The notes: generated by a model not told the origin, from the sequence alone. DNA of 40,000 nucleotides from Salinarchaeum sp. Harcht-Bsk1 (GCF_000403645.1 NC_021313.1:1281014-1321013), one strand, 5' to 3'; counted from the first letter of the stretch, positions 14,410 to 38,948 are shown. Numbers and translations: made by a program.

Positions 14410-15096
14410 TCATTGACGATCCACCCGGCTCTCGTACTCTATTGGATCTTCAGCCCCTACGTTCTGGAACGCCTCTAGCCTGAACGCGCATGAATCACAG
14501 GTGCCACATGCCGGCTCCTCGCTTCGGTAGCAACTCCAAGTCAGCTCATAGGGCACGCCCAGTTCGAGGCCGCGTTCGGCGATATCCGTCTTCGACCACT
14601 CGACGAACGGCGCGATGAGGTCGATTTTCGTCTCGGGTTTCGTTCCGACATCTATGACCTGCTGGAACGCCTCGAAGAATTCCGGCCGGCAGTCCGGATA
14701 GCCGGCGAAATCCTCGGAGTGAGCGCCGATGAACAGGGCCCTACAGTCGCTGGCCTCGGCGTAGGAGACTGCCATCGAGAGCAGGTTCGCGTTCCGGAAG
14801 GGGACGTACGATGTTGGAATCCCCTCGGCGTCGGGATCGGCTTCGGCGACGTCGATTTCGTCGTCAGTCAGACTGGAGTCGCCGATCGCCGAGAGATGTT
14901 CGGTGGCAACGTGGAGGAAGTCGGCAGCTTCGACCTCTTCTGCGAGCGCCCGAGCACACTCGAGTTCTTTGTCTTCGGTCTCCTGGCCGTAGGAGGTGTG
15001 TAGGAAGTAGGGTTCGTACCCCCGATGGATCGCCTCGTAGACGGCCGTCGCGCTGTCCATTCCGCCAGAAACCAGGATGACTGCGTTCTCGCTCAT
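14410..15096 (-). CDS. queC: 7-cyano-7-deazaguanine (preQ0) synthase
   Basis: 228 aa. PP-loop VILVSGGMDSAT, YVPFRNANLL, and the C-terminal Zn cluster CYRSEEPACGTCDSCAFR. ATGA overlap with folE. Confidence 0.9.
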   Translation of the reverse strand: MSENAVILVSGGMDSATAVYEAIHRGYEPYFLHTSYGQETEDKELECARALAEEVEAADFLHVATEHLSAIGDSSLTDDEIDVAEADPDAEGIPTSYVPFRNANLLSMAVSYAEASDCRALFIGAHSEDFAGYPDCRPEFFEAFQQVIDVGTKPETKIDLIAPFVEWSKTDIAERGLELGVPYELTWSCYRSEEPACGTCDSCAFRLEAFQNVGAEDPIEYESRVDRQ

Positions 15097-15701
15097 AGGT
15101 TACTGAGTACGTTGTCGAACTGCGTTCGGTCACAGTCGTTGGGATCCCCTGCAGTCGCTCGCGAGGTCGTCTCCGTTCGGGTCTCGACGCCTCGCATCGC
15201 TTCGCAGAGATGCGTCGCGGACACCTCGACGATCACGGATTCCGGGTCGAGTTCGTCCTGTAGCCCTTCGGCGATGTCCGCCGTCAGGCCCTCTTGGGTG
15301 GCGAGTCGCCGTGACTGCCAGCGGACGTACCGTGGGAGTTTCGAGAGACCGACGATCTCCTCGCCGGGGCGGTAGCCGATGTGGGCCACGCCGAAGAACG
15401 GGAGCATGTGGTGTTCACAGAGGCTGTAGATGGGGATCTCCGTCTTGACGACGAGTTCGTCGGTATCGGCCCCGAACGTTCGAAGGTCGGGTTTGGCGGT
15501 CTCGCGCGTTCCCTCAGTCAGTGTCTCCATCATCGCAGGGACGCGGCGATCCCACGTTTCCGCCAAGGGGGCCTTTTCGGGTTCCTCGCCGATTGCCTCA
15601 AGCAGGAGTCTCGTCCCCCGCCGAGCCTTCTCGAGGTCGATCTCGCTGTCCTCCACCGGATCGGCCGTCGTCTCCTCGTACTGAAGCTGATTGTCGGTCA
15701 T
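15093..15701 (-). CDS. folE: GTP cyclohydrolase I (FolE, type IA)
   Basis: 202 aa. SLCEHHMLPFFGVAHIGYRP, VGLSKLPR and VEVSATHLCEAMRGV are canonical FolE active-site segments. Confidence 0.85.
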   Translation of the reverse strand: MTDNQLQYEETTADPVEDSEIDLEKARRGTRLLLEAIGEEPEKAPLAETWDRRVPAMMETLTEGTRETAKPDLRTFGADTDELVVKTEIPIYSLCEHHMLPFFGVAHIGYRPGEEIVGLSKLPRYVRWQSRRLATQEGLTADIAEGLQDELDPESVIVEVSATHLCEAMRGVETRTETTSRATAGDPNDCDRTQFDNVLSNL

Positions 15702-16478
15702 CTATGTCCCCGGCGCGTCGTTCCAGAGGTCGACGTGCAACCGTGGCGTGTATCGGTAGCCGTGGTCCTGTGCGAGCTCCGCCACCGTTCCCCGCCGCTC
15801 GTCGAGTTCCTCGCGTGTCATTCCTTCCGGCATGAGCAGAACGTCGTTGTTCTCGATCTCTGTATCCGCCGTCTCCCGGAGCCGAACGAGCAGGTCCTCG
15901 ATCTCGGCCATGTCGTCGGGCCCGGTAACCACGAACTTGAGTTGGCTGTCGTAGGCGTCGACGAGGTCGGACAACGTGTCCACGTCGATCCGACGGTTCT
16001 CGTGGCGCTCCGCCCACTCGCCCGCTCCCTTCGGATCCAGTTCCTCGGTGGGCGTGGAACTGGCGAGTTTCGGGCTAATGCTCGCGAGATCGATGGGCGC
16101 GTCACGGTAGATCGTGCCATTTGTCTCCACGGTCGTATGGAAGCCGCGATCGGCGAGTTCCTCTAGCAGTTCCTCTGTGTCGTCGTGGATCATCGGCTCG
16201 CCGCCAGTAACGACGACGTGTTCTGCCGCGTCAAACTCCGCGATCTGCTCGACGAGTTTATCGATCGTCAACCAGGCACCGGTGGGTTCCCAGGAAGTGT
16301 GGTAGGAGTCACAGAACCAACAGCGGAGGTTACACCCCGACGTCCGCACGAAGACGGAGGGGACGCCCGCGAGCTTACCCTCGCCCTGGAGGGAGTAGAA
16401 GAGCTCGTTGATAGGGAGTGCTGCTGCCTCGGGCGTGTCCTCCGAACCGACGTCACTGACGTCCGTAGCGACCGGCAT
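15702..16478 (-). CDS. queE: 7-carboxy-7-deazaguanine synthase (radical SAM)
   Basis: Starting from ATG 16478 (258 aa): INELFYSLQGEGKLAGVPSVFVRTSGCNLRCWFCDS (C-x3-C-x2-C) and VVVTGGEP. TGATG overlap with the queD stop. The 109-codon Arg-rich extension of the track ORF is rejected. Confidence 0.85.
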   Translation of the reverse strand: MPVATDVSDVGSEDTPEAAALPINELFYSLQGEGKLAGVPSVFVRTSGCNLRCWFCDSYHTSWEPTGAWLTIDKLVEQIAEFDAAEHVVVTGGEPMIHDDTEELLEELADRGFHTTVETNGTIYRDAPIDLASISPKLASSTPTEELDPKGAGEWAERHENRRIDVDTLSDLVDAYDSQLKFVVTGPDDMAEIEDLLVRLRETADTEIENNDVLLMPEGMTREELDERRGTVAELAQDHGYRYTPRLHVDLWNDAPGT

Positions 16479-16939
16479 CAGTATGTGGCACAGAGTTCGC
16501 CGGTCTCTCGAACGGTGACCGAGGCATTCGAGACGTTCTCGGGGAGTTCCTCTTCGAGTTCCCGTTCGAGCTCGAGGGACATCACCTCCGCCGTGGGTGG
16601 ATGATCCAGGAGTAGGAGGCTCTCCCCTTCGCCGGCTTCTTCGAACGCTTTCGCCAACGGATCGGATTTCTCGAGCAAGAACCGGTGGTCCCACTCGTCG
16701 ATGATGTCGGTGACGATCCCCTTGTCGACGACCCACCCTTCCATGGTGAGCGTTCCAGTCACCTCGATCGTGATCTCGTAGTTGTGCCCGTGCGGACGCG
16801 AGCACTTGCCATCGTGGTGGCGAATCCGGTGGCCGGTACTGATTCTGATCGGGGAATCGCCCCCGATTCGGAGAGTACGCTCCCCGGCTTCGGCCAGTTC
16901 GATATTACTTGAGGCCGCTTCGGATAATCCTCGGGGCAT
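16478..16939 (-). CDS. queD: 6-carboxy-5,6,7,8-tetrahydropterin synthase
   Basis: 153 aa. The PTPS-fold Zn/active-site motif CSRPHGHNYEITIEV, and WDHRFLL. Confidence 0.85.
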   Translation of the reverse strand: MPRGLSEAASSNIELAEAGERTLRIGGDSPIRISTGHRIRHHDGKCSRPHGHNYEITIEVTGTLTMEGWVVDKGIVTDIIDEWDHRFLLEKSDPLAKAFEEAGEGESLLLLDHPPTAEVMSLELERELEEELPENVSNASVTVRETGELCATY

Positions 16940-17074
16940 ATCCCAGGATCATCTAGCAGTCCAATAAAGGTACCGCGACCTGTTGAACGGCGGATAGAAG
17001 CGCGTTCGTTCACAGCCTGGAGAATGCCCAGCGCTGGCACCCACTCTTTTGGTCTCCTTCCTCCAAGAATATCC
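16940..17074. promoter_or_regulatory. divergent promoter region between the que operon (-) and the RHH/GIY-YIG pair (+)
   Basis: 135-bp gap between the two divergent start codons. Contains the A/T-rich box caataaagg. An RHH repressor gene sits immediately on one side. Confidence 0.3.
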
Positions 17075-17248
17075 ATGGCGAAAGTGAGCGTCGAGATCCC
17101 CGATGAACTGTTAGAGGACCTCGATGAACACGTTGGTGAGGGAAAGAAATTCGTCAACCGAAGCGAAGCAATTCGAGGATCTATCCGGAAGACGCTGGAC
17201 ATCTTCGACGACATCGATGAGCGGCAGGGGAGGATCGAAGAGAGTTGA
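17075..17248 (+). CDS. ribbon-helix-helix (CopG/Arc family) DNA-binding protein
   Basis: Starting from ATG 17075 (57 aa): MAKVSVEIPDELLEDLDEHVGEGKKFVNRSEAIRGSIRKTL. This is a beta-strand (VSVEIP) followed by two helices with the N-R-S-E-x-I-R pattern typical of RHH. Confidence 0.65.
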   Translation: MAKVSVEIPDELLEDLDEHVGEGKKFVNRSEAIRGSIRKTLDIFDDIDERQGRIEES

Positions 17249-17254
17249 ACACTC

Positions 17255-17779
17255 ATGAATTTGTCATCTATCCCTACCGAATCCGGCGTATACTGTATGT
17301 TTGATCTTGACGGCGCGCCAGCTTATGCCGGACAGACCAGTAACATCAGGAGTCGATTACGACAACACTTCATACGCCAGGACTCGAGCGTTTCCAGTTA
17401 CGGTCGTCTCGATCCATGGGACATTGCCTCCGTAAGTTGGTGGACAACTGAGCGGTGCGATCCAGCGGAACAAGAATTGCTGACTACGTTCCAACCCTAT
17501 CTGAACTTCTCTGCGGAGAGCGATACACCACCGTTGTCAACCGATATCAGTCTTGATTCACCTGATGGGACCTTTGCCCTCATGTCTGATCAAGAGCAGG
17601 AGTTCCGGAGGCAGCCGTATAACCGAGTCAAACAGAAAATGGAGCACATCAACCGGATGGTAGATAAGATTAAATACGCCGATCACAGCGACGACACCCG
17701 TCGGACGCTGTACGAGCACAAACGCATTTTGGAAGAGAATCTTCAGGAATTCCTCGGTGTCGATGAGATGCCCGGGTGA
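17255..17779 (+). CDS. GIY-YIG domain nuclease
   Basis: 174 aa. GVYCMFDLDGAPAYAGQTSNIRSRLRQH matches GIY-(x9-11)-YxG with the conserved downstream Arg-x3-H/E. Starts 6 bp after the RHH gene. Confidence 0.6.
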   Translation: MNLSSIPTESGVYCMFDLDGAPAYAGQTSNIRSRLRQHFIRQDSSVSSYGRLDPWDIASVSWWTTERCDPAEQELLTTFQPYLNFSAESDTPPLSTDISLDSPDGTFALMSDQEQEFRRQPYNRVKQKMEHINRMVDKIKYADHSDDTRRTLYEHKRILEENLQEFLGVDEMPG

Positions 17780-17787
17780 TGGGCGGA

Positions 17788-20567: not shown

Positions 20568-21029
20568 TCAGTCACCGTGTACCGGATCTGGTCGACCGCT
20601 AGACACCAAGTGCTTCAACCGCTTGCCCTTCATCCCAATACCACAGCCCTCGATATAGTGGACCGGAATATCAACAGCAGCCTCGATCCCGTCAACAGCC
20701 GGCAGATAATCCGCTCCCAGATTGACCCACACTTTGTCATACTCATTCCCAGCGACTTTCTCCGCAATTTCCCCGACCACCTCGTCGTTCAATTCGTTAG
20801 CACGGTCTGTGTCCATCTGACGATCATAATATCCGATCTTATCATCGGTTTCAACGACTCCATGCTCAGCAGATATAATAATCATGTCAAGTCCAGGTTG
20901 AAACTGGTCCGCGCGCAGCGCCTTCTTGATGATTCTAAAGAAGTATCCATCGTACAAATCGAGGGCAGGCACCGGTGTATCCACCGATTCCTTTGTCGCG
21001 GAACATGATTGGACTAATAGTGACGTCAT
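20568..21029 (-). CDS. small protein with N-terminal CSxxK motif (stand-alone ArcS-C1/DUF5591-like or DUF6884-like domain?)
   Basis: 153 aa. LLVQSCSATKESV...ALDLYDGYFF resembles the strand-CSxxK start of the C-terminal domain of the neighbouring 636-aa protein (LLILPCSQEKPY). The family assignment is from memory only. Confidence 0.45.
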   Translation of the reverse strand: MTSLLVQSCSATKESVDTPVPALDLYDGYFFRIIKKALRADQFQPGLDMIIISAEHGVVETDDKIGYYDRQMDTDRANELNDEVVGEIAEKVAGNEYDKVWVNLGADYLPAVDGIEAAVDIPVHYIEGCGIGMKGKRLKHLVSSGRPDPVHGD

Positions 21030-21105: not shown

Positions 21106-23016
21106 TTACAACGAGGTGGTAAATCGTTCCACAAGCTCGTCGATATTCTCGCCACGGAAATGCTCGGTCAGCTGAAGGGCTCGCGGGTTGGACGGGAATA
21201 TCTCACCTCGGCCATATCGGGTGAATGCCTGGTCGATAGCTCGGCGATACGCTTTGCTCGTCGTGTAGGCCAAGATGTGGTCAAACTGTTCACCGAATCG
21301 GTCCAGGTACTGGGCGAGCCGGTTCGCAACGAGTTCGACTTGATCATCGTCCGCAGTGGTGAGGACATACTCGTAGCTCATTACAGGGTCCGCCTCCTCG
21401 AACTCCTCTGGCACAGGACCGTACAACCCTGAGAGGGATATCTTGTGGAACTGGTCCCGATACTCTTCAATCGGGGAGAGCACTGCCTGATGTGTCCGCG
21501 AGTCGGAGTAGGGCTTCTCCTGGCTGCACGGCAGAATTAGGAGGACATCAGCCTCAGATGGTGGCTGGTAGCCATCCTGCTGGAGAATGTTGAAATCGTT
21601 AGGACCGTGCTCCAATGAGATGGTCCGTTTCTCCCGTGTCGTGTCTTCAACCCCCTCGAGGAAGCCGGAGAGTTTAGTTTGGAACGTTCCAGCGTCCGGT
21701 CCCGCAACGAGTTCCTCGTAGCCGATGTCGGCCAACTGTTCGCGGAGCTCCGGGTTGTGGAGCTGTGCCCGCTTCAGCCCTTTCTCGACGATGTTCTTCC
21801 CCTGGGCGAACTCCGCCACGAGTTCGAGCAGTTCGTCGTTATCGATGGCGTCCCGCACAGCCTGCATCTGGCGACTGTACAATTCGAAGTTGTGCTGGGC
21901 TATCTGTGCGTAGTATTCGCTCTTGAAACGCTTCCCGTGCTCCCCCTCGATACGTTTGTAGCTGACATCGGACTCTAGAAGGGCGTGCCGCATATCGGCG
22001 AAGTAGATGTTCTGGCATGCCTGACAATCGCAGTACTCCTCGTCCCAGTCGCTCAACTTGGTCCGCTGCCACGTCTCCGGGTGGATGAAGCTCTTGTTCC
22101 GGGCTGCTTTCAAGTAGTTCGAGGAGTCGAACGTGTCGACGCCGAGGAGGGAGAGTAGCGGACAGAGCCGGCCGCTGATGCCGAACACGTGGAGTGCGAT
22201 GTCATCGTACCGTTCCTCCGGTATCGCATCCCTCGCACCTTGGACGATGTCGACGAGGACGTCCGGTGAGTTGCTGAGCGGGACAAGTGATCCGAGCGCA
22301 AAGCCCTCAAACGCTTCATCCAGTTCCTCAGCCCGGTCCAGAAATCGGCTCACGTACCAATTGACGTCCTCGTAGCTGTGGCCGTGAATCGCCACGTAGA
22401 CGGATGGGGACTTGTCGACACCCCATTCCTCGAGCTTCTCATCGTCATTGAGCAGCTGTAGACATTCGACTGCGTTATCGATACTCCGCTTCATTCGCTC
22501 GGTGGCTTCCGCCTTGTTCAGGTTCTGAGGAATCGGGAAGTCCAAGGTGGCGACGATGTCAGCACCATAATCCAGCTGCAGCTTCAGAATGCTCTCCGGA
22601 TTCGTGTAGATGCCCCAGTCGTTCTCGCTCCCACCTTCTTCCGGCGGCTGGCCGAATGTCGTCGAGTTCATCAGCTTGAATCCGCCGGAATCGACAAACA
22701 ATGGCTGCGTGAACCCGGGTTCGGCATCGCTCTCCTCGAAGTGCTGCTTCAGCGGTTTCTCCCGCCACTCCACCAGGTTGTCCGGGGTGAGATTGTAGTC
22801 GAGAAACGTCATCGTCTGGAACATGAATCCCTGGACAGTGTCGCTCTGGAAGAGATAGCGCCGCGTATACCGCCAGATGCCACCTGATTCTGGGGTGGTT
22901 CCTCCGATAAGATTCGCAACTGGGAGAAGGGCAGGTGTCTGAATCTGGCCGGCAGGCGTGTCTATCTCGCCCCGCCGACCGTATCTGGCCTTTGCGAGCG
23001 TCCTGAATGGAGGCAT
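21106..23016 (-). CDS. TGT-catalytic-domain protein fused to an ArcS-type C1 domain (archaeosine-synthase-like), apparently PUA-less
   Basis: 636 aa from ATG 23016. N-terminal half: FVDSGGFK, LLGVDTFDSSNYL, Zn site CDCQACQ...RH. C-terminal half: LPCSQEKPYSDSRTH at 21490..21531, an exact match to the ArcS signature PC-x3-KPY-x2-S-x2-H. Only about 127 aa follow the motif. Confidence 0.75.
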   Translation of the reverse strand: MPPFRTLAKARYGRRGEIDTPAGQIQTPALLPVANLIGGTTPESGGIWRYTRRYLFQSDTVQGFMFQTMTFLDYNLTPDNLVEWREKPLKQHFEESDAEPGFTQPLFVDSGGFKLMNSTTFGQPPEEGGSENDWGIYTNPESILKLQLDYGADIVATLDFPIPQNLNKAEATERMKRSIDNAVECLQLLNDDEKLEEWGVDKSPSVYVAIHGHSYEDVNWYVSRFLDRAEELDEAFEGFALGSLVPLSNSPDVLVDIVQGARDAIPEERYDDIALHVFGISGRLCPLLSLLGVDTFDSSNYLKAARNKSFIHPETWQRTKLSDWDEEYCDCQACQNIYFADMRHALLESDVSYKRIEGEHGKRFKSEYYAQIAQHNFELYSRQMQAVRDAIDNDELLELVAEFAQGKNIVEKGLKRAQLHNPELREQLADIGYEELVAGPDAGTFQTKLSGFLEGVEDTTREKRTISLEHGPNDFNILQQDGYQPPSEADVLLILPCSQEKPYSDSRTHQAVLSPIEEYRDQFHKISLSGLYGPVPEEFEEADPVMSYEYVLTTADDDQVELVANRLAQYLDRFGEQFDHILAYTTSKAYRRAIDQAFTRYGRGEIFPSNPRALQLTEHFRGENIDELVERFTTSL

Positions 23017-23294
23017 CAAAGAACCTGTGTAGTAACTCTATGCGACACCTCAATTAACCTCTCGCTCCAGAAAGCGTAAAAATTCTATCAATACTGAGAT
23101 GCCGATGGAGCCGATATGTCAGTAAACGCTGCCACTCAAAGCGAACTGGAAAGGCGCACCAGCAACCGTGACGATGACCGACAACACTGGAGACAACACT
23201 GTTGGGTCTGTATCGGGCGTTACAAATAGCGCCACAGCGACTTTCCAGGGGTTCCGGAAGCAGATACAGAAGAAACTGGATGCACGGGAAGGTT

Positions 23295-23915
23295 TTATGG
23301 TGAAATGAAAGCAGTGCCGAGGGCTTGGATGCTGAACCCAAGTAGGATGAGGAATACGCCGCTTCGGCGAAACCGGGAGTCAAGTTTTTGGATGCGCTCT
23401 CGAATAAAGTACTGGACGGCTTCTAGCTCAAAATAGACATCGTTGTCGACGCCCTCTCCAGTCAGATGTAGCGCTTTTCGCAGATCATTCTCGTGAAACT
23501 CATATTTCTCCGGGCTGATGGTGTCGAAACTATCCCAAGCGATCTCCGTGGACACATTGTCTGACTCCTCATATTGCTCTCGAATAAGATGTAAGAGGTC
23601 GTCGAAGGTGGGTGACCGAGCTGGAGCGAGCAGGTGTTCTTCATCTAAATCGGGATCCGCAACGACCCACCCAGGAAATGGCTTGAGTATCTCGTCTTGG
23701 CTTTGCTTCAGCCGGCCACTCTCAAACCGTCGGTTCAACGCCGGCCAGTCAGGCACCACAAGAACAATCGCACCGACCACATCGATCAATAATCCTGTAA
23801 CGACGACTGCTACACTGCTCAAGGAGTAGTAGCATGCATAGAGGAGTGCTGTAGGGACGAGAACGAGTAGTGCGAGCGCTGCCACAAGCCGTGTTTGGGG
23901 AAATGTAACTGACAT
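23295..23915 (-). CDS. membrane protein (two N-terminal and one C-terminal predicted TM helices)
   Basis: Hydrophobic runs LVAALALLVLVPTALLYACYY, VAVVVTGLLIDVVGAIVLVV and GVFLILLGFSIQALGTAFI flank an acidic soluble middle. It is the last gene of the helicase-1 operon. Confidence 0.55.
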   Translation of the reverse strand: MSVTFPQTRLVAALALLVLVPTALLYACYYSLSSVAVVVTGLLIDVVGAIVLVVPDWPALNRRFESGRLKQSQDEILKPFPGWVVADPDLDEEHLLAPARSPTFDDLLHLIREQYEESDNVSTEIAWDSFDTISPEKYEFHENDLRKALHLTGEGVDNDVYFELEAVQYFIRERIQKLDSRFRRSGVFLILLGFSIQALGTAFISP

Positions 23916-29452: not shown

Positions 29453-32400
29453 TCATGGCGTTTGTCCTACTGCCTCCGCGAGCAGCGTCCTGTTCAGCAG
29501 GTCGTTGTCCAGATACGTAGCTGGTGTCCGCTCGATCAAGAGACAGTTCTCACAATAGCCGCTACATTCGTCACAATCAATCACGTTTCGGACCTCGTCG
29601 ACGATAGCGTCCAAGTGTCGGTCGACCTGTGTCGCAATCCCGTTGCCACCCTGCCGATTATCGACGATGTAGACGCGAATCTCGTCGCCCGTCGCCGTCA
29701 CCTTCACGCGGAAATCGTCTTGATCACTCTGGGTTTCGACGGCAACCGCTTTCGTTAACGCTTGTTCTAAGCTGATGAACAGTTGGGGCCACACTGCCTC
29801 GTCTTCCTGTTCCAACGCCTCATCCGGAAGTCGATCAGCCACCGCTGCCTGGTCGAACGTGAGACAGATCCCCTGTGTTACGTACTGCTTCCCGACAGGC
29901 GCGTACCGGGCATCGTCGCTGTCAGGAATCCGTGCTTCAGACCGTTTGATCTCTTTCCCGGATCCCATCGTGTGCCGCCGCTCGAATACCGGGATAAAGT
30001 CAATCACATCGTAGCCGCCGACCGCTACGTCACAGGAGAGGCCGAATACCGTGGTTTCTTCGCCTGCGGTTCTTTCGCCACGACTCGTGACGTGGGTCGT
30101 CATGATGGGCGAGGTACTGTATAAATCTTCGAACTGGTGGGCTTTCCGACAGTTGACTGCCTGAACGCCGTGGACTGAAATCGCATCTAACGGGTTGCCG
30201 CAGTGTGGACATTGCTCTGCTGCTGTCCGGTAGCTTTCGAACGGCCGGGTACAGTCCTCGTTGGTGCAAATCGCCACCGTCTGTAACGGTTCCTTCGTGC
30301 CTTCGACGTCCGACACCAAGTAGGTTGAGCCGTACAGGGTCATCACTGCCCCTCGCTCATTTTCCTCACCAGGGTAGAAGTCGTAGAGGCGGCCGTCACC
30401 TTGGAACGAGATGCTTTCACTGCTGCCTTCGAACTGGACAGGGAACTGTTGGCCGAACTCGCGATAGTTCGCCAAGTAGCCCAGTCGGTTGAGCCAGGAA
30501 TCCAATCGGTCATTCCCGTTTCGCACGTCGTCGAGATCGGTGCTGTCACTGAAGCTGCGGAACTGGCCACAGGTTTGCTGTGTCCGTTGCCGGAAACTCA
30601 CCGGGCCGTCACTGTTGAAAACCGCGTCGAAGACCTCCAAACCACGTTGCCCGAACACGGCCCCGATATGGTCCCGTAACCGGTCCGTCACGTCGTCGCG
30701 GACAAAGGTGCGTAGCTCGTCAAGGTTGGCTTCCACACGGTCGGCGAACTCGGCCACAGAGTCGACCGACTGATTAATCTGGTAGGTCTCCTCGAACGTG
30801 TCACTGGGATGCGGGTTGCGGGCGAGATAGGCGACGACTTCGGTCACTACGTGGCCGGCCAGGACTTCGTCGAAGTCGAACGGGTCCGGAACACGGACAG
30901 GGTCGAAGCTGCCGAAGAAGCGATCCAGGTCGTCGTAGTAGTGTGCGTCGACAGGATGGGTGCCGCGGACCGTGGTGGCTACCAAGGATTCGCTGCCGCG
31001 CGTCCGCCCGGTGCGGCCGCTGCGTTGCACGTAGTTAGTCAAAGTCGGCGGTATCCCGACCTGTGCCACTGAATCCAAGGTGCCGATGTCCACACCGAGT
31101 TCCATCGTCGGAGTCGCGCTGACGATGTTGATGTCCGGATCTGATTTCCGGAACCCCTCCTCAATGGCGCTCCGAAGTGTCGGTGGGACGTCCCCCTTGT
31201 GGATTCCTACCGTGATGAAGTCCAACTCCATCATCTCGACCGTGTCGCGCGGTACCGGTGGCCCTTCACTCGGGATGAGAGGCGCAAGGATATCGTGGCC
31301 CCAGTGATCGACCGGGTACTCCCAGTCTGTCTCGACGTCTGCCCAGCCGAGGAGGGTCATTGAGCCGTCGTCCTCGACACGGAACCGTTGGTGGACGTCG
31401 ACCGTATTTCCGCAGGTCGGGCAATGGTCAAGGCCGTCATCGTGACGGGGAACAGGTGACGCCGTGTAACAGTCGTTGCAGAACGTTACCTGGGGAACCA
31501 GTTGGAGGTCCGTCTTACTCGCGTAGTCGTGGACGGTGAAGATACCGCCGCCGACATCACTATAGCCGTCACGTGCTTCCAGACCGTCAATTTGGTCTTC
31601 GATGTACTCGAAGACATCGTCCTCAGTTGCTTCATCCTTCCCCGCGTTGAGTATCGTGTCCCGTACGCCATCCCACGTTTTGAGTTCAAACACGTCGCCG
31701 TCTAGCAACCCCTGCAACACGTCGTCGACAACCTCGTCGATTTCCTCTTCGGTGAATCGTGTCTCAGACTCGAGCTTGTTGACCAACCGCTCCCGGGTGT
31801 ATCCCTGGAACTTGATTCCGTGTTTCTGGAACTGGGGCGGGAACCGGCTGACGAAGAGATTGAACACCTCGTGGCCGATTGCCGCGGTCTTCGGATCGGG
31901 ACAGGTGTGGACCCATGCAGGGGTGACAAGCGCTGCTTCACGGAGATGCTGGCACTGGGAGAGCCGTGCGTTCGGCTCGATTTCGTTCCACAGCTCAACG
32001 AGAATATCGTTCGCATCCGTTTCCCGGTCCGGTGTGTTCTGTCGCAGTGGCTGCCAGTACTTCTCCCGCAGTGTATCCAATACCGGGTAAAACAGTGACC
32101 GGGCCTCAGCTCGGCCACCTTCCTCGATCAACTGCTTCACGTACAGCGTCTCAGCGGTTAACCCGTACTCCGTCCCGATGATTTCGTTGCTGACCGATTC
32201 AGCTGTCGACCGTGAATCAGAGAAGACCAACGTCTTCTCGGACGGCATCGACCGGCACAGCGACGTCAACATGAACGAAAGCAGGGTCGGCGTCGGCACC
32301 GTGATATCGGTCAACCGGAGCCGCAACGTCGTACAGCCAGGACACGGACCGTCCGTCCCGCCGCCGTAGACCGGTTGAAACACCTCGTCGTCCTCGTCTT

Positions 32401-34183
32401 CGTTTTCGGTGTCGGCTTCGACGAACGGGTGGTGGCAGGTCCTGCAGAACCGGAGTTCCCGTGTCTGGTGGCCCTCGGGACAGGACCGGCCACGGGTCAC
32501 TTCCTCGCATGTCTGGCACCAGTAGACCTTCCGCGGCGGTTTGGCGAACATGTGGTACTTCGCCGTCACCATCCCGGCTGCCCGGCCCAAGGCAAGCAAT
32601 GCTGACACCGCTTCATCCGGGTTCGACGCACCTGCTTTCTCAATCCGGTTCACGAGGTCAGCGTAGTGTTCGAACTCAACCTCGGTGGTCGACTCGTCCA
32701 TGAACCACGATGCAACAGTCGCGACTTCCGGAACCGTATCACGGATAAACTGGAACCATCTGCCGCCGAGATCGCCGTGCTCGACCACCTGTTCCGTCAA
32801 GGTATCCAGTTCCTCGGGGGCTATCCCGGGCGCAGTCCCTCCGTTCTGGACAGCTCCCGCGGTGTTGTCTTCCTGTTCGGTGTCGATGCTGTCAGCTATG
32901 GGGGCGAACACCCAGTCTCGGTGCTGGTCTGGCACCGTCAACGGGTCTGGCCCTGCCAAGAGTCCAATCTCCTCCAACGTGGTGACGGCACCGGTCAACT
33001 GTGGATAGCTGCCGCAGAACGTCTCCCGGTCAACGTCGTGGCGTTCGGTGAGGACGAGTGTTTCCACGACGTCGCGGAGTGAACACTCCGCAAACCGGTC
33101 GAAATCAGTCGCCCCGGTGACCGGGAAGTCGCGGGCGGTGAACCCGAGCTCGTTGACATCGTCTCTATCCGTCCCGGTCAGGGCGGATGCCAGGTCGCTG
33201 GGGTTCTCGATGGTGGCGGAGACCAGCGTAACCTGTGGATCATGTGCTGCGTAAAACTGTTTGAGACGGCGAGTGAGCAATCCGATACTTGACCCGGATA
33301 TCCCGCTCCACACGTGGGCTTCGTCGAAAACCACGTGTTGAACTGGGCTTTTCTCCGGGCCTTGACCTAGGATATCACGGGTGGCCTCGTTGTCGCTGAC
33401 GAACATATAGTCGAGCGCATCCGGGTTCGTCAGGAGGATGTCGACCCCGTCACGGATCTGCTCGCGAGTGATCTTGAGCCACGGATACGTCCAGTCATCG
33501 CTGCCCGGTGTCCCATCGCTGGTCACCCGTAAATCGTCCTGGGTGCGGGGACACTCGAGGCCACGGACGTTGGCACCGATATCCAGGTCGTAGTCACGCG
33601 GTCCGACTGCCGCCGGCGTATCCCGGTCCCAGATCCCGATGGTAACGCGGTCTTCGCGTGGTAGTTCCTGGTTCACCGTGTCAATGTAACGGAGGAACCG
33701 ATTGAGCTGGTCGACACCCAGCGTCTTCATCGGATAAATGACGATCGCTTTCAACCCGTTGTCGTCCGTCGCCACACAGTCATTGAGTACTGGGAGGAAG
33801 AACGACTCCGTTTTCCCGGTCGCTGTCGGCACAGCCAAGATGTTGTCGTCAGGATCCGTCTCGATAGCCTCGATCGTGTCTACCTGGTGCTGATAGAGCG
33901 ACCCGGCACGGTCCCCACCGAACAACTCGTCGACGACCGCGTCGACAACCCGTTCATCGTAGCCATACTGCTCCAGTAGCTCGGCAGCTGGCCGCTCCGC
34001 TGTGGCTGGCGGTGAGACAAATTCGAGATACGGGCCTTTGGTATCCACCAGTTCGTTTGAAACGAAGGAAGTAGCGTTGGTAACGCCTGAAATACGGTTG
34101 AGCTTGGTAAGTTTTCGATTCCACCACGTGATCTCGGAGGCGCGATCAGTGGCGGTGGCAAACGCGTTCAACGGGGATGGCAT
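29453..34183 (-). CDS. giant SF2 DEAH-type helicase with Zn-ribbon insertions and a DUF1998 (MrfA/DrmB-type Zn-binding)-like C-terminus
   Basis: 1576 aa. Motifs in order: LYQHQ (Q), AVPTATGKTE (I), VIYPMKTLGVDQ (Ia), ILLTNPDAL (Ib), VVFDEAHVW (II), LVSATIENP (III), TLVFSDSRS (IV), VSATPTMELGVDIG (V), YVQRSGRTGR (VI). Inserted ribbons CQTC..C..H, CRTC, CPGC, CNDC..CPTC, CTNEDC..CPHC. C-terminus DNRQGGNGIA...CDECSGYCENC. Confidence 0.85.
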   Translation of the reverse strand: MPSPLNAFATATDRASEITWWNRKLTKLNRISGVTNATSFVSNELVDTKGPYLEFVSPPATAERPAAELLEQYGYDERVVDAVVDELFGGDRAGSLYQHQVDTIEAIETDPDDNILAVPTATGKTESFFLPVLNDCVATDDNGLKAIVIYPMKTLGVDQLNRFLRYIDTVNQELPREDRVTIGIWDRDTPAAVGPRDYDLDIGANVRGLECPRTQDDLRVTSDGTPGSDDWTYPWLKITREQIRDGVDILLTNPDALDYMFVSDNEATRDILGQGPEKSPVQHVVFDEAHVWSGISGSSIGLLTRRLKQFYAAHDPQVTLVSATIENPSDLASALTGTDRDDVNELGFTARDFPVTGATDFDRFAECSLRDVVETLVLTERHDVDRETFCGSYPQLTGAVTTLEEIGLLAGPDPLTVPDQHRDWVFAPIADSIDTEQEDNTAGAVQNGGTAPGIAPEELDTLTEQVVEHGDLGGRWFQFIRDTVPEVATVASWFMDESTTEVEFEHYADLVNRIEKAGASNPDEAVSALLALGRAAGMVTAKYHMFAKPPRKVYWCQTCEEVTRGRSCPEGHQTRELRFCRTCHHPFVEADTENEDEDDEVFQPVYGGGTDGPCPGCTTLRLRLTDITVPTPTLLSFMLTSLCRSMPSEKTLVFSDSRSTAESVSNEIIGTEYGLTAETLYVKQLIEEGGRAEARSLFYPVLDTLREKYWQPLRQNTPDRETDANDILVELWNEIEPNARLSQCQHLREAALVTPAWVHTCPDPKTAAIGHEVFNLFVSRFPPQFQKHGIKFQGYTRERLVNKLESETRFTEEEIDEVVDDVLQGLLDGDVFELKTWDGVRDTILNAGKDEATEDDVFEYIEDQIDGLEARDGYSDVGGGIFTVHDYASKTDLQLVPQVTFCNDCYTASPVPRHDDGLDHCPTCGNTVDVHQRFRVEDDGSMTLLGWADVETDWEYPVDHWGHDILAPLIPSEGPPVPRDTVEMMELDFITVGIHKGDVPPTLRSAIEEGFRKSDPDINIVSATPTMELGVDIGTLDSVAQVGIPPTLTNYVQRSGRTGRTRGSESLVATTVRGTHPVDAHYYDDLDRFFGSFDPVRVPDPFDFDEVLAGHVVTEVVAYLARNPHPSDTFEETYQINQSVDSVAEFADRVEANLDELRTFVRDDVTDRLRDHIGAVFGQRGLEVFDAVFNSDGPVSFRQRTQQTCGQFRSFSDSTDLDDVRNGNDRLDSWLNRLGYLANYREFGQQFPVQFEGSSESISFQGDGRLYDFYPGEENERGAVMTLYGSTYLVSDVEGTKEPLQTVAICTNEDCTRPFESYRTAAEQCPHCGNPLDAISVHGVQAVNCRKAHQFEDLYSTSPIMTTHVTSRGERTAGEETTVFGLSCDVAVGGYDVIDFIPVFERRHTMGSGKEIKRSEARIPDSDDARYAPVGKQYVTQGICLTFDQAAVADRLPDEALEQEDEAVWPQLFISLEQALTKAVAVETQSDQDDFRVKVTATGDEIRVYIVDNRQGGNGIATQVDRHLDAIVDEVRNVIDCDECSGYCENCLLIERTPATYLDNDLLNRTLLAEAVGQTP

Positions 34184-34369: not shown

Positions 34370-37300
34370 ATGCAATATAGCGACGATACAACGAACCCTG
34401 ACCGTATCCCGGACGAGGTCCGTCCTTTAGTCCGCGGGATGTTGTTCAATCGCCAGCTGCTCGGCACTGATCACGACGGCGCTCCTGTGACCGATGCTGT
34501 CAAATACACGAGCGAAGCGCAGAAACGGCGGTTGGCCACCCCATATGACGGCGATGACCCGTTCGTCGACGAGATTATCGATATTTTTGGCTTCAACCCG
34601 CTCGATTTTCAGGTCGACAGCTGGCAGCTGATCAACGACTTCCATCAGCAACGACACGACACTGGGGAGCCACATGCCGCCATCCTATCGGCTCCGACCG
34701 GGTTTGGGAAGACAGAAGCATTTCTCGGCCCGCTGTACCAACAGCTGCGGAACGGTGAGCAGGACACCACGGTCATTGTCTATCCACGCCGGGCACTCCT
34801 CCAAGACCAGCTCGGCCGCATCCTGCAGCACATCCACTCCATGCGTCCCGCCGGCGAGCAGGCACCGCTCTCCGTTGGTGTCTACATGGGTGGTATGCCC
34901 TACAACGTGGAGGACGTCCGCGATGACTATTTCGAATCCGAGAACGGACGGGAGACGTTCCAATTAGCGCACTGCTGGTGCGGCGATGAAACAACGACAA
35001 ACGCGTTCACCTATGACGGGAGTTCGAACTCCTACACCATTCGCTGTGAAGCGGACGATACCCACAGTTTCACCAACAACGAACTCGTCTTAAGCCGCCA
35101 GCAGATTAAGGATGGGGAAACCCCGGACATCCTGTTAACCACGTTGGAAGCGCTGGAACTCTTTGCGCTCAAACCCAACTACGACATCGTCGACGACGTT
35201 GACACGTTCGTCCTGGACGAGGTCCACCTGTACACCCGGCTTCGTGGCGCGCACGCAGCGAAGATCATTGGTAACATTAACGACATCACGGAACAGCCCC
35301 TGCTCTGGATCGGGGCGAGCGCCACCATCGATAACGCCGACCGGTTCATCCGGAAACTCTTCGACTTCCCCTCCGGCCGTTTAGCGACGGTCGACGTTCC
35401 TGAGTCCGACCTCAAACAGGACCACGACGACCAGGAGCACTACTACTTCCTGTTATCACCGGAGGATGGGCCGGGTGCCTCCTCCATGATGATCCAGCAA
35501 CTGTTGTTGATCGGGCACGGCCTCCTTCGCGACACCGACGGCAACGAGGGCAAAGCCCTGTCCTTCATCGACAGCATCAGTCAGGTCAATCAGAAGAACG
35601 ACCAGCTCGACGACGCCGAACGCGGCGACGGCCAAGGCGAGCCACCCTTGTGGCACCACCATACCGATCGGTCGCCGCGCGGCCAGCAACCGGCTAATCC
35701 GGAAGCCGATTGGGCCGACATCGCCGACGCCATGGGCTACGACTTCATCGAGGATCGCGCCCTCGACTTCCTCCCCGTCTACTCCCAAATCGGGTTCGAC
35801 GCGGAGGACGCCGCTGACAGCGATATCTTCCTATCAACCTCGTTCCTCGAAGTCGGTATCGACATCGGGGAGATCAAGCACGTCACCCAGTACCGGACCC
35901 CGCAGAACCTGTCCTCCTTCGTCCAGCGGACCGGCCGCGCCGCCCGGGAAGAAGGCATGGACGCCCACATCTTCGTCTTCCTCTCCAATCTGACGAACGA
36001 TGCCAACATGTTCTACCGGGCGGACCGCTTCCTCAGCTCCGAACTCCGCACCCCCCTCAAACCAGACAACGACGTTATCGAGTGGATCCATACTACCCTC
36101 AACACCTACTACACTCGAGCCAGCGACATCGATGATCGTCGTATCCGCCGCGGTGAAGAAGCAACTTTCCTTGAGGAATTCCTCACCCAGGACAAGCAAT
36201 ACCAGGAGTTCTACCAGTTGCTGCTCAATCCCAGCGACTTCCTCCTCGCTGAATTCGGCATCGACGAAACCGTCGAACCCCTTACCACGGAGGCAGGAAT
36301 CGAAACCTTCCGTGACATTATCAACCGACGGGAAGCCGAGCTGGAAGAGGAGTTCGCGGAGGTCGAAGACCTGATCAATATCGACAGCGGTGACATCACC
36401 CGCAGCGATAATGCATTCGAACAGTACGTCGACGAAGTCAGGCAACGCACCCTCGAAGTCATCAGCCACTACGTCGAGATTGTCGATCAGTACCAAGACC
36501 ACGTCGACGGTGGCGATGCCCCTGACCTCGTTGACGACCTGAACGAGCTCTACGACGAATTCGAGGAGCTACGCGAGGAGGCCCGTGACGGCTACCGCGG
36601 TGCTGAGACCGAACGCGTCGAACAGTATGAACAGCTCTTCGGCAGGATCATCTCCGCAGTCGGCGACCTCACGGGGCTTCGCGCACAGGTCAACATCCAC
36701 ATCGATGACCGGCCCGAGGATGTCTCCCTTGACCGGATCACTGATCTCAGTGACGCCGTCGAGATCCTAGGTTCAATCGCCGGTGACGGCCGACTCGAGG
36801 AGAACATCGACGAACGCTACCAGATCAACTACCTACGCCGCGTCCTCGACCAACTCGGAGAGTACCGCGATCTTGAACGAGACCCTGACAACCGGGTGAA
36901 CCGGCCGCATATGAGCCTCCACTACGTGAAGCATTTGCTCCGTGCGGCCTATTACCTCCACCGCTACCTCCAGGTCACCGACCGAACCTACAGTGACGAA
37001 ATTTGGTACGTGCCTCCGTCGTACTTCGACAACAGCGGCCAGTTCTTCACCGTTGTTGATCCTGATGGATTCGACGACGAGGAAACCATCGATAGTCTCG
37101 TCCACACTAATGCACCGTACCGCAGTGAATTCCAAAACGAATCCACCAATCTCCACGTCTTCCTCCCTGAGACCGAGGTCGAGAGCTACGGGGAACAGCC
37201 GACGGGCAATGAGGTCCAGTTCGACTTCAGCGACATCCCCGGCGACCAGCGGAACGGGATGCTGGTCCCGGACTCCATCCAGCTCACAGAAATCCCTGAC

Positions 37301-38533
37301 GTCACCGGGCAACGCGCGCTCAACATCGTTGCCTACTGCCCGCAGTGCCTCACCTTGCTTGATGATCAACGGTGCGTCCGGCACAACGAGATTGCGTGGG
37401 GCAAGGTCCATGCCGAACCCCAGGTCCGGACCGTCGCCCGCGACACCGACGTCGAGGCCGCGACCGGCAGCCTCGCGCTCGCCGGACTCCGCGGCCAAGT
37501 CACCCTGGATGGAGTCTCTCTCGACATCACACCGGCCCGGCCGATGGGTGACATGGGCATCCAGTTCACCGGTGACGACCGCATCCAACGCGAAATCGAC
37601 AGCCCGGACACGCCGCTCGGCTTCGACCTGAAGACCCGCGGCCTAATCTACGATCTCACCGACTTCATCGACTACGTCGAGGACAACGAGGACCTCATCG
37701 CTGACGTCGCCCGGTACAAGAACCTGGACGGGGTCCCGATCGACGAATTAGCGTACCATACAGCCGCTCACTTCTTCCTCCACTTGGTCGCGGACGTCGG
37801 TGGTGTCAACCCGTCCATGCTGTTCTACGGCCTGGATCCCGAGGAAGGGATCGTGTTCATCTTCGAACGGACGGAAGGTGGCCAAGGGATCGTCGACCTC
37901 GTTTATGACGAACTGGAGAACGATCCCGGCACTCTGCTCGAATCACTGGTCCGTATTACCTACAACACGCAGGTCATCAACGAACAACTCTGGGCAAATC
38001 CCGATTTCGTCGAGGACCTACCTGAGCGCGGCGTCGATGAAGACGCTGTCCAACACTGTGTAGACACGCATCTCGACGAGCAGCTTGACATGGTCTTTCC
38101 CGAAATCCGGGACGAAGTGGTGCAGGAGGTGTTGTCGACCTGTGACCGGGCCGCCCAGCTCAGCGACGAGGAAAGCATCCCTCTCCGTGACGCCTACACC
38201 GTGAAGCACACCGTGGCGGATGCCCAGCTGGATGGCGCCGATACGTTCCCTGAGGGACGCGTTGATGCACTCAACGTTGACCTGGATGAGCTGCACCGTA
38301 TCGAATCACTGTTCTTCTCCCCGGATATCGACGGCTGTGTCGAAAACCTGCACACCGGGGAATGCATCTCTGGCCACGATCAAGAGGAAGTCCTGAGCCA
38401 CGTCTTGTTGCAGGAACTCCGCCACCACCTCGTTGACTTCGTGGACACCGACGACGCTGTCGATGAAATGTTTGACCGTGAGCAAGTTCCCGCAGGAGAA
38501 ATCAATGACACGAGCATTTACTTTACCTTCTAA
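34370..38533 (+). CDS. giant SF2 DEVH-type helicase, paralogous architecture to helicase 1, with DUF1998-like C-terminus
   Basis: 1387 aa. LSAPTGFGKTEAF (I), VIVYPRRALLQDQ (Ia), ILLTTLEALE (Ib), FVLDEVHLY (II), IGASATIDN (III), LSTSFLEVGIDIG (V), FVQRTGRAAR (VI). Zn motifs CWCGDE...C...H and CPQC...CVRH. C-terminus FERTEGGQGIV...CVENLHTGECISGH. Confidence 0.85.
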   Translation: MQYSDDTTNPDRIPDEVRPLVRGMLFNRQLLGTDHDGAPVTDAVKYTSEAQKRRLATPYDGDDPFVDEIIDIFGFNPLDFQVDSWQLINDFHQQRHDTGEPHAAILSAPTGFGKTEAFLGPLYQQLRNGEQDTTVIVYPRRALLQDQLGRILQHIHSMRPAGEQAPLSVGVYMGGMPYNVEDVRDDYFESENGRETFQLAHCWCGDETTTNAFTYDGSSNSYTIRCEADDTHSFTNNELVLSRQQIKDGETPDILLTTLEALELFALKPNYDIVDDVDTFVLDEVHLYTRLRGAHAAKIIGNINDITEQPLLWIGASATIDNADRFIRKLFDFPSGRLATVDVPESDLKQDHDDQEHYYFLLSPEDGPGASSMMIQQLLLIGHGLLRDTDGNEGKALSFIDSISQVNQKNDQLDDAERGDGQGEPPLWHHHTDRSPRGQQPANPEADWADIADAMGYDFIEDRALDFLPVYSQIGFDAEDAADSDIFLSTSFLEVGIDIGEIKHVTQYRTPQNLSSFVQRTGRAAREEGMDAHIFVFLSNLTNDANMFYRADRFLSSELRTPLKPDNDVIEWIHTTLNTYYTRASDIDDRRIRRGEEATFLEEFLTQDKQYQEFYQLLLNPSDFLLAEFGIDETVEPLTTEAGIETFRDIINRREAELEEEFAEVEDLINIDSGDITRSDNAFEQYVDEVRQRTLEVISHYVEIVDQYQDHVDGGDAPDLVDDLNELYDEFEELREEARDGYRGAETERVEQYEQLFGRIISAVGDLTGLRAQVNIHIDDRPEDVSLDRITDLSDAVEILGSIAGDGRLEENIDERYQINYLRRVLDQLGEYRDLERDPDNRVNRPHMSLHYVKHLLRAAYYLHRYLQVTDRTYSDEIWYVPPSYFDNSGQFFTVVDPDGFDDEETIDSLVHTNAPYRSEFQNESTNLHVFLPETEVESYGEQPTGNEVQFDFSDIPGDQRNGMLVPDSIQLTEIPDVTGQRALNIVAYCPQCLTLLDDQRCVRHNEIAWGKVHAEPQVRTVARDTDVEAATGSLALAGLRGQVTLDGVSLDITPARPMGDMGIQFTGDDRIQREIDSPDTPLGFDLKTRGLIYDLTDFIDYVEDNEDLIADVARYKNLDGVPIDELAYHTAAHFFLHLVADVGGVNPSMLFYGLDPEEGIVFIFERTEGGQGIVDLVYDELENDPGTLLESLVRITYNTQVINEQLWANPDFVEDLPERGVDEDAVQHCVDTHLDEQLDMVFPEIRDEVVQEVLSTCDRAAQLSDEESIPLRDAYTVKHTVADAQLDGADTFPEGRVDALNVDLDELHRIESLFFSPDIDGCVENLHTGECISGHDQEEVLSHVLLQELRHHLVDFVDTDDAVDEMFDREQVPAGEINDTSIYFTF

Positions 38534-38948
38534 CGAACTCGCCTACTTCATCGGGTACACCCTGATCCACGCCGACAGGGTCGTTCTCGTCTCGCCGTGG
38601 CTGAGCGACGTCGAACTCCGCTTCCCGGTGAACGACCAGACTTCCAGCCGCGAACTCCTGCTCTCCAAAGCCGTCGCCGAACTCACCGACACTGACATCA
38701 CTTTCCTCATCAACGGCAACGAAGACCACAACGACTACATCAAATCCCGTGTCGAACGGAACGCCGAAGTCGTTGACGTCCCCGACCTCCACGCCAAAGC
38801 CGTCATCACTGACGACTGGGTCTACGCCGGCTCCGCCAACATCACCCGCCGCGGCCTCCTCGTTAACCGCGAGCTCTGCAAAATTGTCACCAACACCCAC
38901 CCAGACGCCAATACTTACGTCGAAGAAGAGCTCAGCGTGGACCTATGA
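38505..38948 (+). CDS. PLD-superfamily (single HKD, Nuc-like) nuclease
   Basis: 147 aa from ATG 38505, overlapping the helicase-2 3' end by 29 nt. HKD motif DLHAKAVITDDWVYAGSANITRRG (HxK...D...GSxN). Confidence 0.8.
   Translation: MTRAFTLPSNELAYFIGYTLIHADRVVLVSPWLSDVELRFPVNDQTSSRELLLSKAVAELTDTDITFLINGNEDHNDYIKSRVERNAEVVDVPDLHAKAVITDDWVYAGSANITRRGLLVNRELCKIVTNTHPDANTYVEEELSVDL

Follow-up and report, generated by a model that had tools for sequence, protein, structure and literature searches.

A probable BRIGADE Type I 7-deazaguanine modification-restriction system carried by an integrated element in Salinarchaeum sp. Harcht-Bsk1

In bacteria, the products of the dpd genes (dpdA-K, Salmonella Montevideo) couple a 7-deazaguanine mark in DNA to restriction: DpdA inserts preQ0 only while DpdB hydrolyses ATP, DpdC turns dPreQ0 into dADG, and the restriction of unmodified DNA falls to DpdD-K (PMC10164549). 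Dpd-like systems that are exclusive to halophilic archaea were named BRIGADE by Bell, Makarova, Koonin et al. (bioRxiv 10.1101/2025.09.15.676423). They combine a 7-deazaguanine cluster with PLD nucleases, DpdG, DpdHI/BrxC and, as a rule, two YprA helicases; in Type I, an ARMADA-like and a Dpd-branch helicase are accompanied by a small PLD protein and often by a DNA2-like protein. The preprint deals with BRIGADE by computation, in a single paragraph and a supplementary figure, and its main text makes no mention of GHKL, MORC, DpdA, DpdB or DpdC; one further paper uses the name, as a mention only. Here we describe a window of 40,000 nucleotides (nt; one strand) from Salinarchaeum sp. Harcht-Bsk1 (GCF_000403645.1 NC_021313.1:1281014-1321013), in which a 24.5-kb island (14410-38948), the cargo of an integrated element, probably encodes all of an archaeal BRIGADE Type I system related to Dpd of bacteria.

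Open reading frames (ORFs) of the window were listed and the island proteins were searched with the profiles of Pfam, NCBIfam and PADLOC; those of the carrier element were also searched with PHROGs. Three gene sets, for preQ0 synthesis, modification and restriction, were found where an initial annotation, made from the sequence, had placed them (Table 1). Its figure of 20 cargo proteins came down to about 18 genes on recount, and its gene list had overlooked a GIY-YIG gene. The G+C content of the island is 0.50-0.63, vs 0.65-0.72 in the flanks.

The same annotation considered this combination not to be a described system, but the hybrid is the one named BRIGADE by Bell et al. 2025 (bioRxiv 10.1101/2025.09.15.676423), and the locus fits Type I on every mandatory point with a clear outcome, DpdG and DpdHI/BrxC being represented by weak, partial matches (below). 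The host is a halophilic archaeon, and all related loci belong to Halobacteria or Nanohaloarchaea. Two YprA helicases are encoded, one with DruE as its best match (ARMADA/Druantia-like) and the other with DpdJ. The 7-deazaguanine cluster comprises QueC, FolE, QueE, QueD, two TGT paralogs and a DUF6884 protein, and the PLD protein is small and, as its 171 amino acids (aa) are too few to accommodate one, has no Cas11-like 4-helix bundle. The optional DNA2-like helicase/nuclease is absent from the window and present in one related locus, on a Haladaptatus megaplasmid (L027). Compared with the published description, the locus includes folE, is complete as a system and sits on a defined integrative element.

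The predicted complete preQ0 set (folE, queD, queE, queC) was upheld by Pfam and NCBIfam for all four genes, which are closely packed, with overlaps of 4, 0 and 1 nt at the QueC/FolE/QueE/QueD junctions. The two TGT paralogs, the CSxxK protein and the GHKL ATPase were likewise found as announced. The DUF6884, TGT and GHKL genes form a trio translationally coupled by 8-nt overlaps at both junctions, and a 76-nt gap separates the ArcS-like gene from the DUF6884 gene.

The shorter TGT protein (416 aa) retains the three catalytic/substrate-binding aspartates of ArcTGT, its Zn ligands and its GSLVP pocket; all 28 of the 28 sequences compared share D122, D165, D294 and these ligands. By sequence, the closest solved structure is the ArcTGT of P. 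horikoshii (1iq8, 3.6e-20), which was again the closest when the predicted fold was compared (pLDDT 84; TM 0.70, 24% identity). As the chain stops soon after the catalytic domain, the tRNA-binding domains C1, C2 and PUA are missing. The protein scored 120 bits on the TgtA model (cutoff 350) and 27 bits on that of bacterial DpdA (NF041059; cutoff 200). Its homologs make up more than 190 clusters, nearly all haloarchaeal and all of about 410-420 aa. Since the enzyme resembles ArcTGT more than DpdA, it is from its context that we infer a DNA substrate.

The GHKL protein, a 100% match to L593_06085 of Salinarchaeum sp. Harcht-Bsk1, has N-box, G1 and G2 motifs that are invariant in 28/28 sequences. 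Its AlphaFold2 (AF2) model (pLDDT 82) retrieved MORC3/4/2 (including MORC2 with DNA), Hsp90 and MutL-N40 as top Foldseek matches, at about 1e-13 and over about 400 residues, a result that suggests an ATPase plus transducer arrangement like that of dimerising clamp ATPases. In agreement with the initial annotation, neither a ParB/DndB-like DpdB nor a methyltransferase was matched among the island proteins (14410-38948) by Pfam, NCBIfam or PADLOC; the sole methyltransferase of the window (1716-2333) belongs to the flanking chromosome and not to the element. With the GHKL ATPase in the coupled position, we propose, by analogy, that it may be a functional replacement of DpdB.

In the ArcS-like protein the motif PCX3KPYX2SX2H (PCSQEKPYSDSRTH) and the TGT aspartates are conserved in 25/25 sequences. 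It scored 116 bits on the ArcS model (NF040592; cutoff 440), Pfam finds no PUA domain in it, and AF0587 (2q07) matches its C-terminal part. Because all three TGT aspartates are kept together with the Cys-Lys motif of ArcS, the protein could act as a second base-exchanging enzyme besides its proposed tailoring role.

It had also been stated that no DpdC-like gene was present. This needs correction, as the CSxxK protein belongs to DUF6884, is related to YaaA/DUF328 and resembles the N-terminal half of DpdC: it matched the N-terminal halves of two PADLOC DpdC models, one at 3.2e-5 (residues 37-127 of a 319-position profile) and the other at 1.6e-4, as well as YaaA (0.006), and it is half as long as DpdC. 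Residues C9, K13, S53, A54 and G57 are invariant in 28/28 sequences; they correspond to the CxxxK and SAxxG motifs noted by the Pfam curators. The YaaA/DUF328 fold, to which DpdC also belongs, is a DNA-binding one. In a profile-profile comparison these motifs aligned, weakly (E 2.7e-4, probability 41%), with CSxxK and SGxxG of the C-terminal domain of the ArcS-like protein.

The restriction genes are arranged in two units. In the minus-strand operon, the 1576-aa helicase gene is followed by those of the 298-aa, 289-aa, 997-aa P-loop and 230-aa proteins, with a gap of 37 nt after the helicase gene and overlaps of 22, 4 and 17 nt at the next junctions; the 1387-aa helicase and the 171-aa PLD genes form a pair transcribed divergently from it. 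The helicase branches were judged by best profile match in PADLOC 2.0, which contains no ARMADA model: the 1576-aa protein matched DruE (4e-47) better than DpdJ (4.5e-27), and the 1387-aa protein matched DpdJ best, scored 163 bits on NF041067 (cutoff 800) and has helicase motifs that are invariant in 11/11 sequences. Both helicases had been credited with DUF1998-like tails. This holds for the 1576-aa protein, which has a true four-Cys cluster, whereas a single CxxC and the absence of an MZB match rule out the domain in the 1387-aa protein. In the PLD protein H120, K122 and GSxN are invariant in 11/11 sequences, and the score on the DpdK equivalog was 55 bits, below the cutoff of 100.

As to the remaining BRIGADE parts, the DpdH profile (1009 positions) is similar in length to the 997-aa protein, the match is confined to the N-terminus, and the Walker A motif GEVGTGKSE is invariant in 6/6 sequences. 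The 289-aa family has 28 representatives (single-sequence HMMER search of 1.84 billion proteins), and 3 of 22 members matched DpdG, weakly (best E 0.001). PADLOC gave no DpdI match for the island proteins or for members of the 230-aa family; homologs of the 230-aa protein showed weak PADLOC matches to the long helical proteins LmuB, PbeC, JetC and ZorA. No family match was obtained for the 298-aa protein or its family members in Pfam, PADLOC, NCBIfam or PHROGs, and the last two were of no help for the 230-aa protein either.

Table 1. Features of the window; positions are counted from its first nucleotide.
Feature	Position	Strand	Evidence or remark
attL-side copy of 183-nt direct repeat; displaced, truncated taw1 5' end	5650-5832		repeat search, 79% identity to 39019-39201
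tyrosine integrase	5876-7177	+	PF00589 1.5e-20; PHROG integrase 9e-25
438-aa ORF, next after integrase, GC ~0.58	7201-8517	-	no Pfam or PHROG match
primase-polymerase / D5-type helicase	9333-12026	+	NrS-1 pol HBD, DUF5906, D5_N domains; PHROG DNA primase 2e-127
terminase large subunit, approximate start	12981-14246	+	phrog_2 terminase large subunit 1.3e-47
QueC (7-cyano-7-deazaguanine synthase)	14410-15096	-	PF06508 2e-71; TIGR00364 180 bits (cutoff 150)
FolE, type I GTP cyclohydrolase	15093-15701	-	PF01227 9e-51; NF006826 164 bits (cutoff 162)
QueE (radical SAM 7-carboxy-7-deazaguanine synthase)	15702-16478	-	Radical_SAM; top NCBIfam matches all QueE families; translation from MPVATDV
QueD (6-carboxytetrahydropterin synthase)	16478-16939	-	PF01242 5e-21; TIGR03367 7e-19
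GIY-YIG nuclease-domain protein	17255-17779	+	PF01541 2.9e-6
MORC-like GHKL ATPase, 510 aa	17788-19320	-	HATPase_c_3 1.8e-15
TGT-superfamily transglycosylase, catalytic domain only, 416-420 aa	19313-20575 (likely start 20563, giving 416 aa)	-	PF01702 1.9e-29
DUF6884 (CSxxK) protein, 153 aa, CxxxK and SAxxG motifs	20568-21029	-	PF21818 1e-11; PADLOC DpdC 3.2e-5
ArcS-like TGT + DUF5591 protein, 637 aa, no PUA	21106-23019	-	PF01702 1.5e-30; PF17884 8.8e-19
low-GC junction between modules	23020-24004		G+C 0.50; its ORFs have no homolog in 27 loci
acidic 230-aa protein, possibly coiled-coil, DpdI position	24005-24697	-	downstream of P-loop gene in 6 loci
P-loop NTPase, 997 aa, DpdH/BrxC-like	24681-27674	-	PADLOC DpdH 1.2e-6
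289-aa protein, weakly DpdG-like	27671-28540	-	3/22 family members match PADLOC DpdG
298-aa protein, conserved within module	28519-29415	-	syntenic in 7 loci
YprA-type superfamily 2 (SF2) helicase, 1576 aa, Druantia/ARMADA-like	29453-34183	-	DEAD, Helicase_C, MZB/DUF1998; nine CxxC
YprA-type SF2 helicase, 1387 aa, DpdJ branch	34370-38533	+	PADLOC DpdJ 2.3e-52
single-HKD PLD nuclease, 171 aa, DpdK-like, one HxK motif	38433-38948	+	PLDc_2 1.6e-8; DpdK 1.9e-14
attR-side copy of 183-nt repeat; 5' end of intact taw1	39019-39201		repeat search and alignment
taw1 (tRNA 4-demethylwyosine synthase), integration target	39070-40000, continues beyond window	+	PDB 6djt 1.7e-75, 2yx0 3e-84

The idea that the island is a Dpd/DISARM-like hybrid, one that modifies and restricts DNA by way of 7-deazaguanine and has no methyltransferase, is well supported by comparative evidence, which includes the matches to DpdJ (2.3e-52), DpdK (1.9e-14), DpdH (1.2e-6) and DruE (4e-47), and conserved synteny. 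The latter was examined by tblastn of the window proteins against 27 loci: 26 from a scan of 185,579 species genomes (one genome per species), plus L027, which came from a plasmid search. They belong to Halobacteria or Nanohaloarchaea, span about 20 genera and include plasmids; flanks of 10 kb were fetched, and several contigs end early. The catalytic motifs that were checked are all invariant across homologs of 45-92% identity. Co-localisation of the gene sets is not due to chance, since the DUF6884, TGT and GHKL genes adjoin one another on a single strand in 27/27 loci, an ArcS-like gene lies within 10 kb in 23 of them, and at least one restriction module is found within the same distance in 16. 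The 1387-aa helicase with its PLD partner is present in 10/27 loci and the 1576-aa helicase operon, or parts of it, in 13/27; queD/E/C are nearby in about half, and the modules differ between loci in order and orientation. On two nanohaloarchaeal contigs the system is compact and has no ArcS-like gene. The linkage between modification and restriction is therefore strong, though not obligatory.

Loci in which the BRIGADE helicases are lacking are defence islands too, given their PglZ-like and GmrSD neighbours. On a Halorubrum plasmid (L002), with no helicases near, a 921-aa protein with a PglZ-like phosphodiesterase domain is encoded at 1626-4391, and in L009 a GmrSD-type Type IV enzyme (14175-17525) lies between the GHKL and the ArcS-like genes. 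Another property of these loci is their mosaic composition. Whereas the restriction operons of the window and of Haloarcula sediminis (L014) share 90-95% identity, the modification genes of the window share only about 48% with those of L014 and about 89% with their counterparts in Halorussus and Halorubrum. For the 1576-aa-helicase operon, identity to the window amounts to 77-95% in L014 and in Halosimplex salinum (L019), vs about 48% for the modification genes of these same loci. The mosaic identities led us to conclude that whole modules have recently been swapped between systems.

Such free recombination favours another reading, in which the modification and the helicase/PLD genes are independent neighbours in a defence island, with the helicases forming a separate Druantia/DISARM-like system and the deazaguanine module marking or protecting DNA alone or with other partners; the PglZ-like and GmrSD neighbours mentioned above speak for it too. 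The trio occurs with none of these helicase modules within 10 kb in 11/27 loci, a count limited by the 10-kb flanks and by contigs that end early. However, despite the shuffling, one or both of the restriction modules stay within 10 kb in the majority of loci, including compact nanohaloarchaeal and plasmid ones, and the best matches of the helicase and PLD proteins are components of Dpd. We therefore regard independent neighbours as unlikely and a linked system of the BRIGADE type as the better explanation.

The comparison with Dpd itself is instructive. Both combine a preQ0-based mark with helicase/PLD restriction; proteins resembling DpdJ, DpdK, DpdH, DpdG and DpdC are present here, and their order is similar (G-H-I, then J-K). 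In contrast to Dpd, the TGT is derived from ArcTGT and is not a DpdA equivalog, a MORC-like GHKL ATPase stands in place of the ParB-like DpdB, the DpdC-like protein has 153 aa vs profiles of about 315-319 positions, and both an ArcS-like enzyme and a second, Druantia/ARMADA-like YprA helicase are added. The DpdJ- and DpdK-like proteins are homologous to their namesakes and fall outside the curated families, and DpdD, DpdE and DpdF were not detected in the island by PADLOC or NCBIfam.

With DISARM, ARMADA and Druantia the locus shares a big helicase of the YprA type that has DUF1998 and numerous zinc modules, and a PLD partner comparable to DrmC of DISARM. It differs in having no DNA methyltransferase (DrmMI/DrmMII of DISARM) and no BrxHII/SNF2 helicase, in its predicted self-mark, a deazaguanine instead of a methyl group, and, from DISARM, in the fusion of DUF1998 to the helicase with no separate DrmB. 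DISARM was discarded as the nearest family on account of the missing methyltransferase and of the profile matches, DrmA (2e-16) being far weaker than DruE or DpdJ, and DrmC (1.3e-6) weaker than DpdK.

The setting of the island on a mobile element, as initially suggested, could be defined in detail. The stretch from the integrase to the PLD gene is bracketed by two 183-nt direct repeats, the right one of which continues into taw1; the island is therefore cargo of an element of about 33.4 kb integrated at the taw1 5' end. In the alignment, both repeat copies open a gene starting MSDADGPKQVDDP. The left copy ends after TACAAGCACGCCTTC, just past which the copies diverge, and the right copy runs on into intact taw1; the element brings its own replacement 5' end for this gene, 79% identical to the displaced one. 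To the left of 5.7 kb the genes are chromosomal (dehydrogenase, SAM methyltransferase, Mrp/ParA ATPase, ArgRS, Usp). The integrase, the primase-helicase and the terminase are aboard the element, a helix-turn-helix protein gene lies between the latter two, and the island directly follows the terminase gene. No capsid, portal or tail genes were found in the element, nor after the terminase, with Pfam or PHROG. An intact provirus is ruled out by this absence of structural genes after the terminase, and the carrier resembles either a provirus that has been gutted or an archaeal island of the satellite type, with a defence payload. Nucleotide searches of the island against plasmids and of the element backbone against phages returned short matches to queC, folE and helicase genes, or none.

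An integrase, a primase and a terminase in the carrier invite the question of whether the modification serves the element as anti-restriction camouflage, as in phages and haloviruses, since haloviruses such as HVTV-1 have preQ0 pathways and DpdA (PMC6884629; PMC8651126). Modification in these viruses (DpdA with ArcS, Gat-QueC or QueF; PMC6884629) likewise combines a preQ0 pathway with an enzyme of the TGT family, and Vibrio phage nt-1, which has an ArcS homolog, contains dG+, dPreQ0 and dADG (PMC6884629). Here, in contrast, the module is linked to restriction rather than anti-restriction genes, the element lacks capsid and tail genes, and homologous systems reside on chromosomes and on megaplasmids with no virus genes. 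Moreover, the 416-aa TGT has no relative in the 2.9 million contigs of IMG/VR nor, by tblastn, in 50,697 GenBank phage records, and on these grounds its identity with viral DpdA was rejected. Camouflage seems to us quite improbable when set against a BRIGADE system.

Still less credible is a deazaguanine borne by a protein or by a signalling nucleotide rather than by DNA, as in type IV CBASS or QatABCD, in which enzymes of the QueC family conjugate the base to proteins. Systems of this sort are reported to have recruited proteins of the QueC family and TGT-like ones (PMC13279940; PMC13329287), and the QatC model does match the N-terminus of QueC, weakly, at 30 bits vs its cutoff of 280. The protein nevertheless scored above the true QueC cutoff, the full FolE-QueD-QueE pathway accompanies it, and PADLOC found no CBASS or Qat partner genes in the island.

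The archaeosine pathway (ArcTGT with ArcS/RaSEA) shares with the locus a catalytic TIM-barrel, a Zn site, preQ0 chemistry and the ArcS motif; it differs in that the genes described here are sporadic, mobile and coupled to DNA helicases and nucleases, code for no C2 or PUA domain, and have no RaSEA gene beside them in the island. That they are housekeeping tRNA-archaeosine genes (tgtA, arcS, queCDE) next to unrelated helicases is hardly conceivable: even with a tRNA enzyme as the nearest solved structure, an intact ArcS catalytic motif and a survey of gene copies confined to the window, both paralogs score far under the equivalog cutoffs (TgtA 120/350, ArcS 116/440) and have no C-terminal PUA by Pfam, the genes lie inside a recently integrated, repeat-bounded element, the scan of species genomes yielded no more than 26 loci with the family, a few of them on plasmids, FolE is of type I, whereas FolE2 is the usual enzyme in most archaea (PMC5699537), and the locus-invariant GHKL and DUF6884 partners have no part in tRNA archaeosine synthesis.

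Several points weigh against a complete BRIGADE Type I system and temper our preference for it. The TGT is nearer to a tRNA-modifying ArcTGT than to bacterial DpdA; the similarities to DpdG, DpdH and DpdC are weak and partial; the modification genes have no BRIGADE restriction module within 10 kb in the 11 loci already mentioned; BRIGADE itself rests on computation; and copies of tgtA, arcS and queCDE were surveyed within the 40-kb window.

If the locus is indeed a BRIGADE Type I system, a scheme can be proposed in which all that follows preQ0 synthesis is inferred from homology and genomic context. Strong family membership indicates that FolE, QueD, QueE and QueC would make the free base preQ0 from GTP. 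The ArcTGT-derived 416-aa enzyme would then exchange chosen guanines of the cell's own DNA for preQ0, helped by the coupled MORC-like GHKL ATPase, which may provide ATP-driven clamping or opening of the DNA, the part played by DpdB in bacteria. Next, the DUF6884 and ArcS-like proteins would act on the nitrile of DNA-bound preQ0, with an amide, an amidine or an amino-acid-adduct base as possible products. The ArcS of T. kodakarensis transfers lysine to preQ0 and accepts substrates down to the preQ0 nucleotide, and the radical SAM enzyme RaSEA is needed for archaeosine (PMC11298593); as RaSEA is not encoded in the island, the DNA product could be an adduct rather than dG+. On the restriction side, Dpd genetics suggests that the DpdJ-like helicase and the DpdK-like PLD nuclease would recognise and destroy unmarked DNA, as would a second module, formed by the Druantia/ARMADA-like helicase with the 298-aa, DpdG-like, DpdH/BrxC-like and 230-aa proteins.

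With the kind of system already named, what is new in this locus concerns the insertion and tailoring machinery and the chemistry of the mark. To our knowledge, there is no report of 7-deazaguanines in archaeal chromosomal DNA. A tentative and on balance doubtful proposal is that haloarchaea write into their own chromosome a 7-deazaguanine hypermodification not known from any cellular genome, for example 2'-deoxyarchaeosine or a lysine/amine adduct of dPreQ0, by means of machinery assembled independently of Dpd. Its parts would be the ArcTGT-derived TGT loaded by a MORC-like clamp, a PUA-less ArcS paralog with a complete TGT active site and the Cys-Lys motif of ArcS, and a DUF6884 protein sharing a CxxxK / S(A/G)xxG core. 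MORC-like GHKL and ParB-like ATPases may be independent recruits that give a TGT access to a base in duplex DNA, and the question is raised of what an ArcS-type enzyme produces when acting on DNA. The locus represents a good test case for BRIGADE, with preQ0 synthesis, insertion, tailoring and both restriction modules within 24.5 kb, in a cultured strain with a complete genome, and the defined ends of the element make it easy to clone.

Between the modification and restriction modules, two ORFs of 109 aa and 207 aa (the latter membrane-like) at 23054-23918 gave no match in Pfam, NCBIfam, PADLOC or PHROG and are conserved in 0/27 related loci; as they have no homolog there, they probably mark the join of the modules. 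Promoter-like and terminator-like sites were looked for in the 23-24 kb junction and none was found. In the window as a whole there was no Rfam family, and a tRNA scan detected no tRNA.

Concerning the GIY-YIG gene, tblastn placed homologs beside the trio in 8 of the 26 loci from the species scan, both nanohaloarchaeal ones among them, and Pfam revealed one in L027; the recurrence amounts to about a third of the loci (L005, L007, L008, L015, L019, L023, L024 and L027). This gene may represent an extra effector or a selfish gene of the homing type. On the Haladaptatus plasmid (L027, 28740-33439), the GIY-YIG gene stands between the genes of two ArcS-like proteins, divergent paralogs of 654 and 673 aa (TGT plus DUF5591, no PUA), and the locus also encodes a 1493-aa AAA_11/AAA_12 (DNA2/Upf1-like) protein. 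Large proteins built of HNH_repeat ('homing endonuclease associated repeat') units stand beside the system in two unrelated loci, L009 (6987-9368) and L027 (1370-3547). Finally, TGT and GHKL homologs with 46-54% identity (P0112 and P0200) are credited to Streptomyces sanglieri on a 5.1-kb contig; these are probably a haloarchaeal contamination or, possibly, the outcome of a rare transfer to a bacterium.

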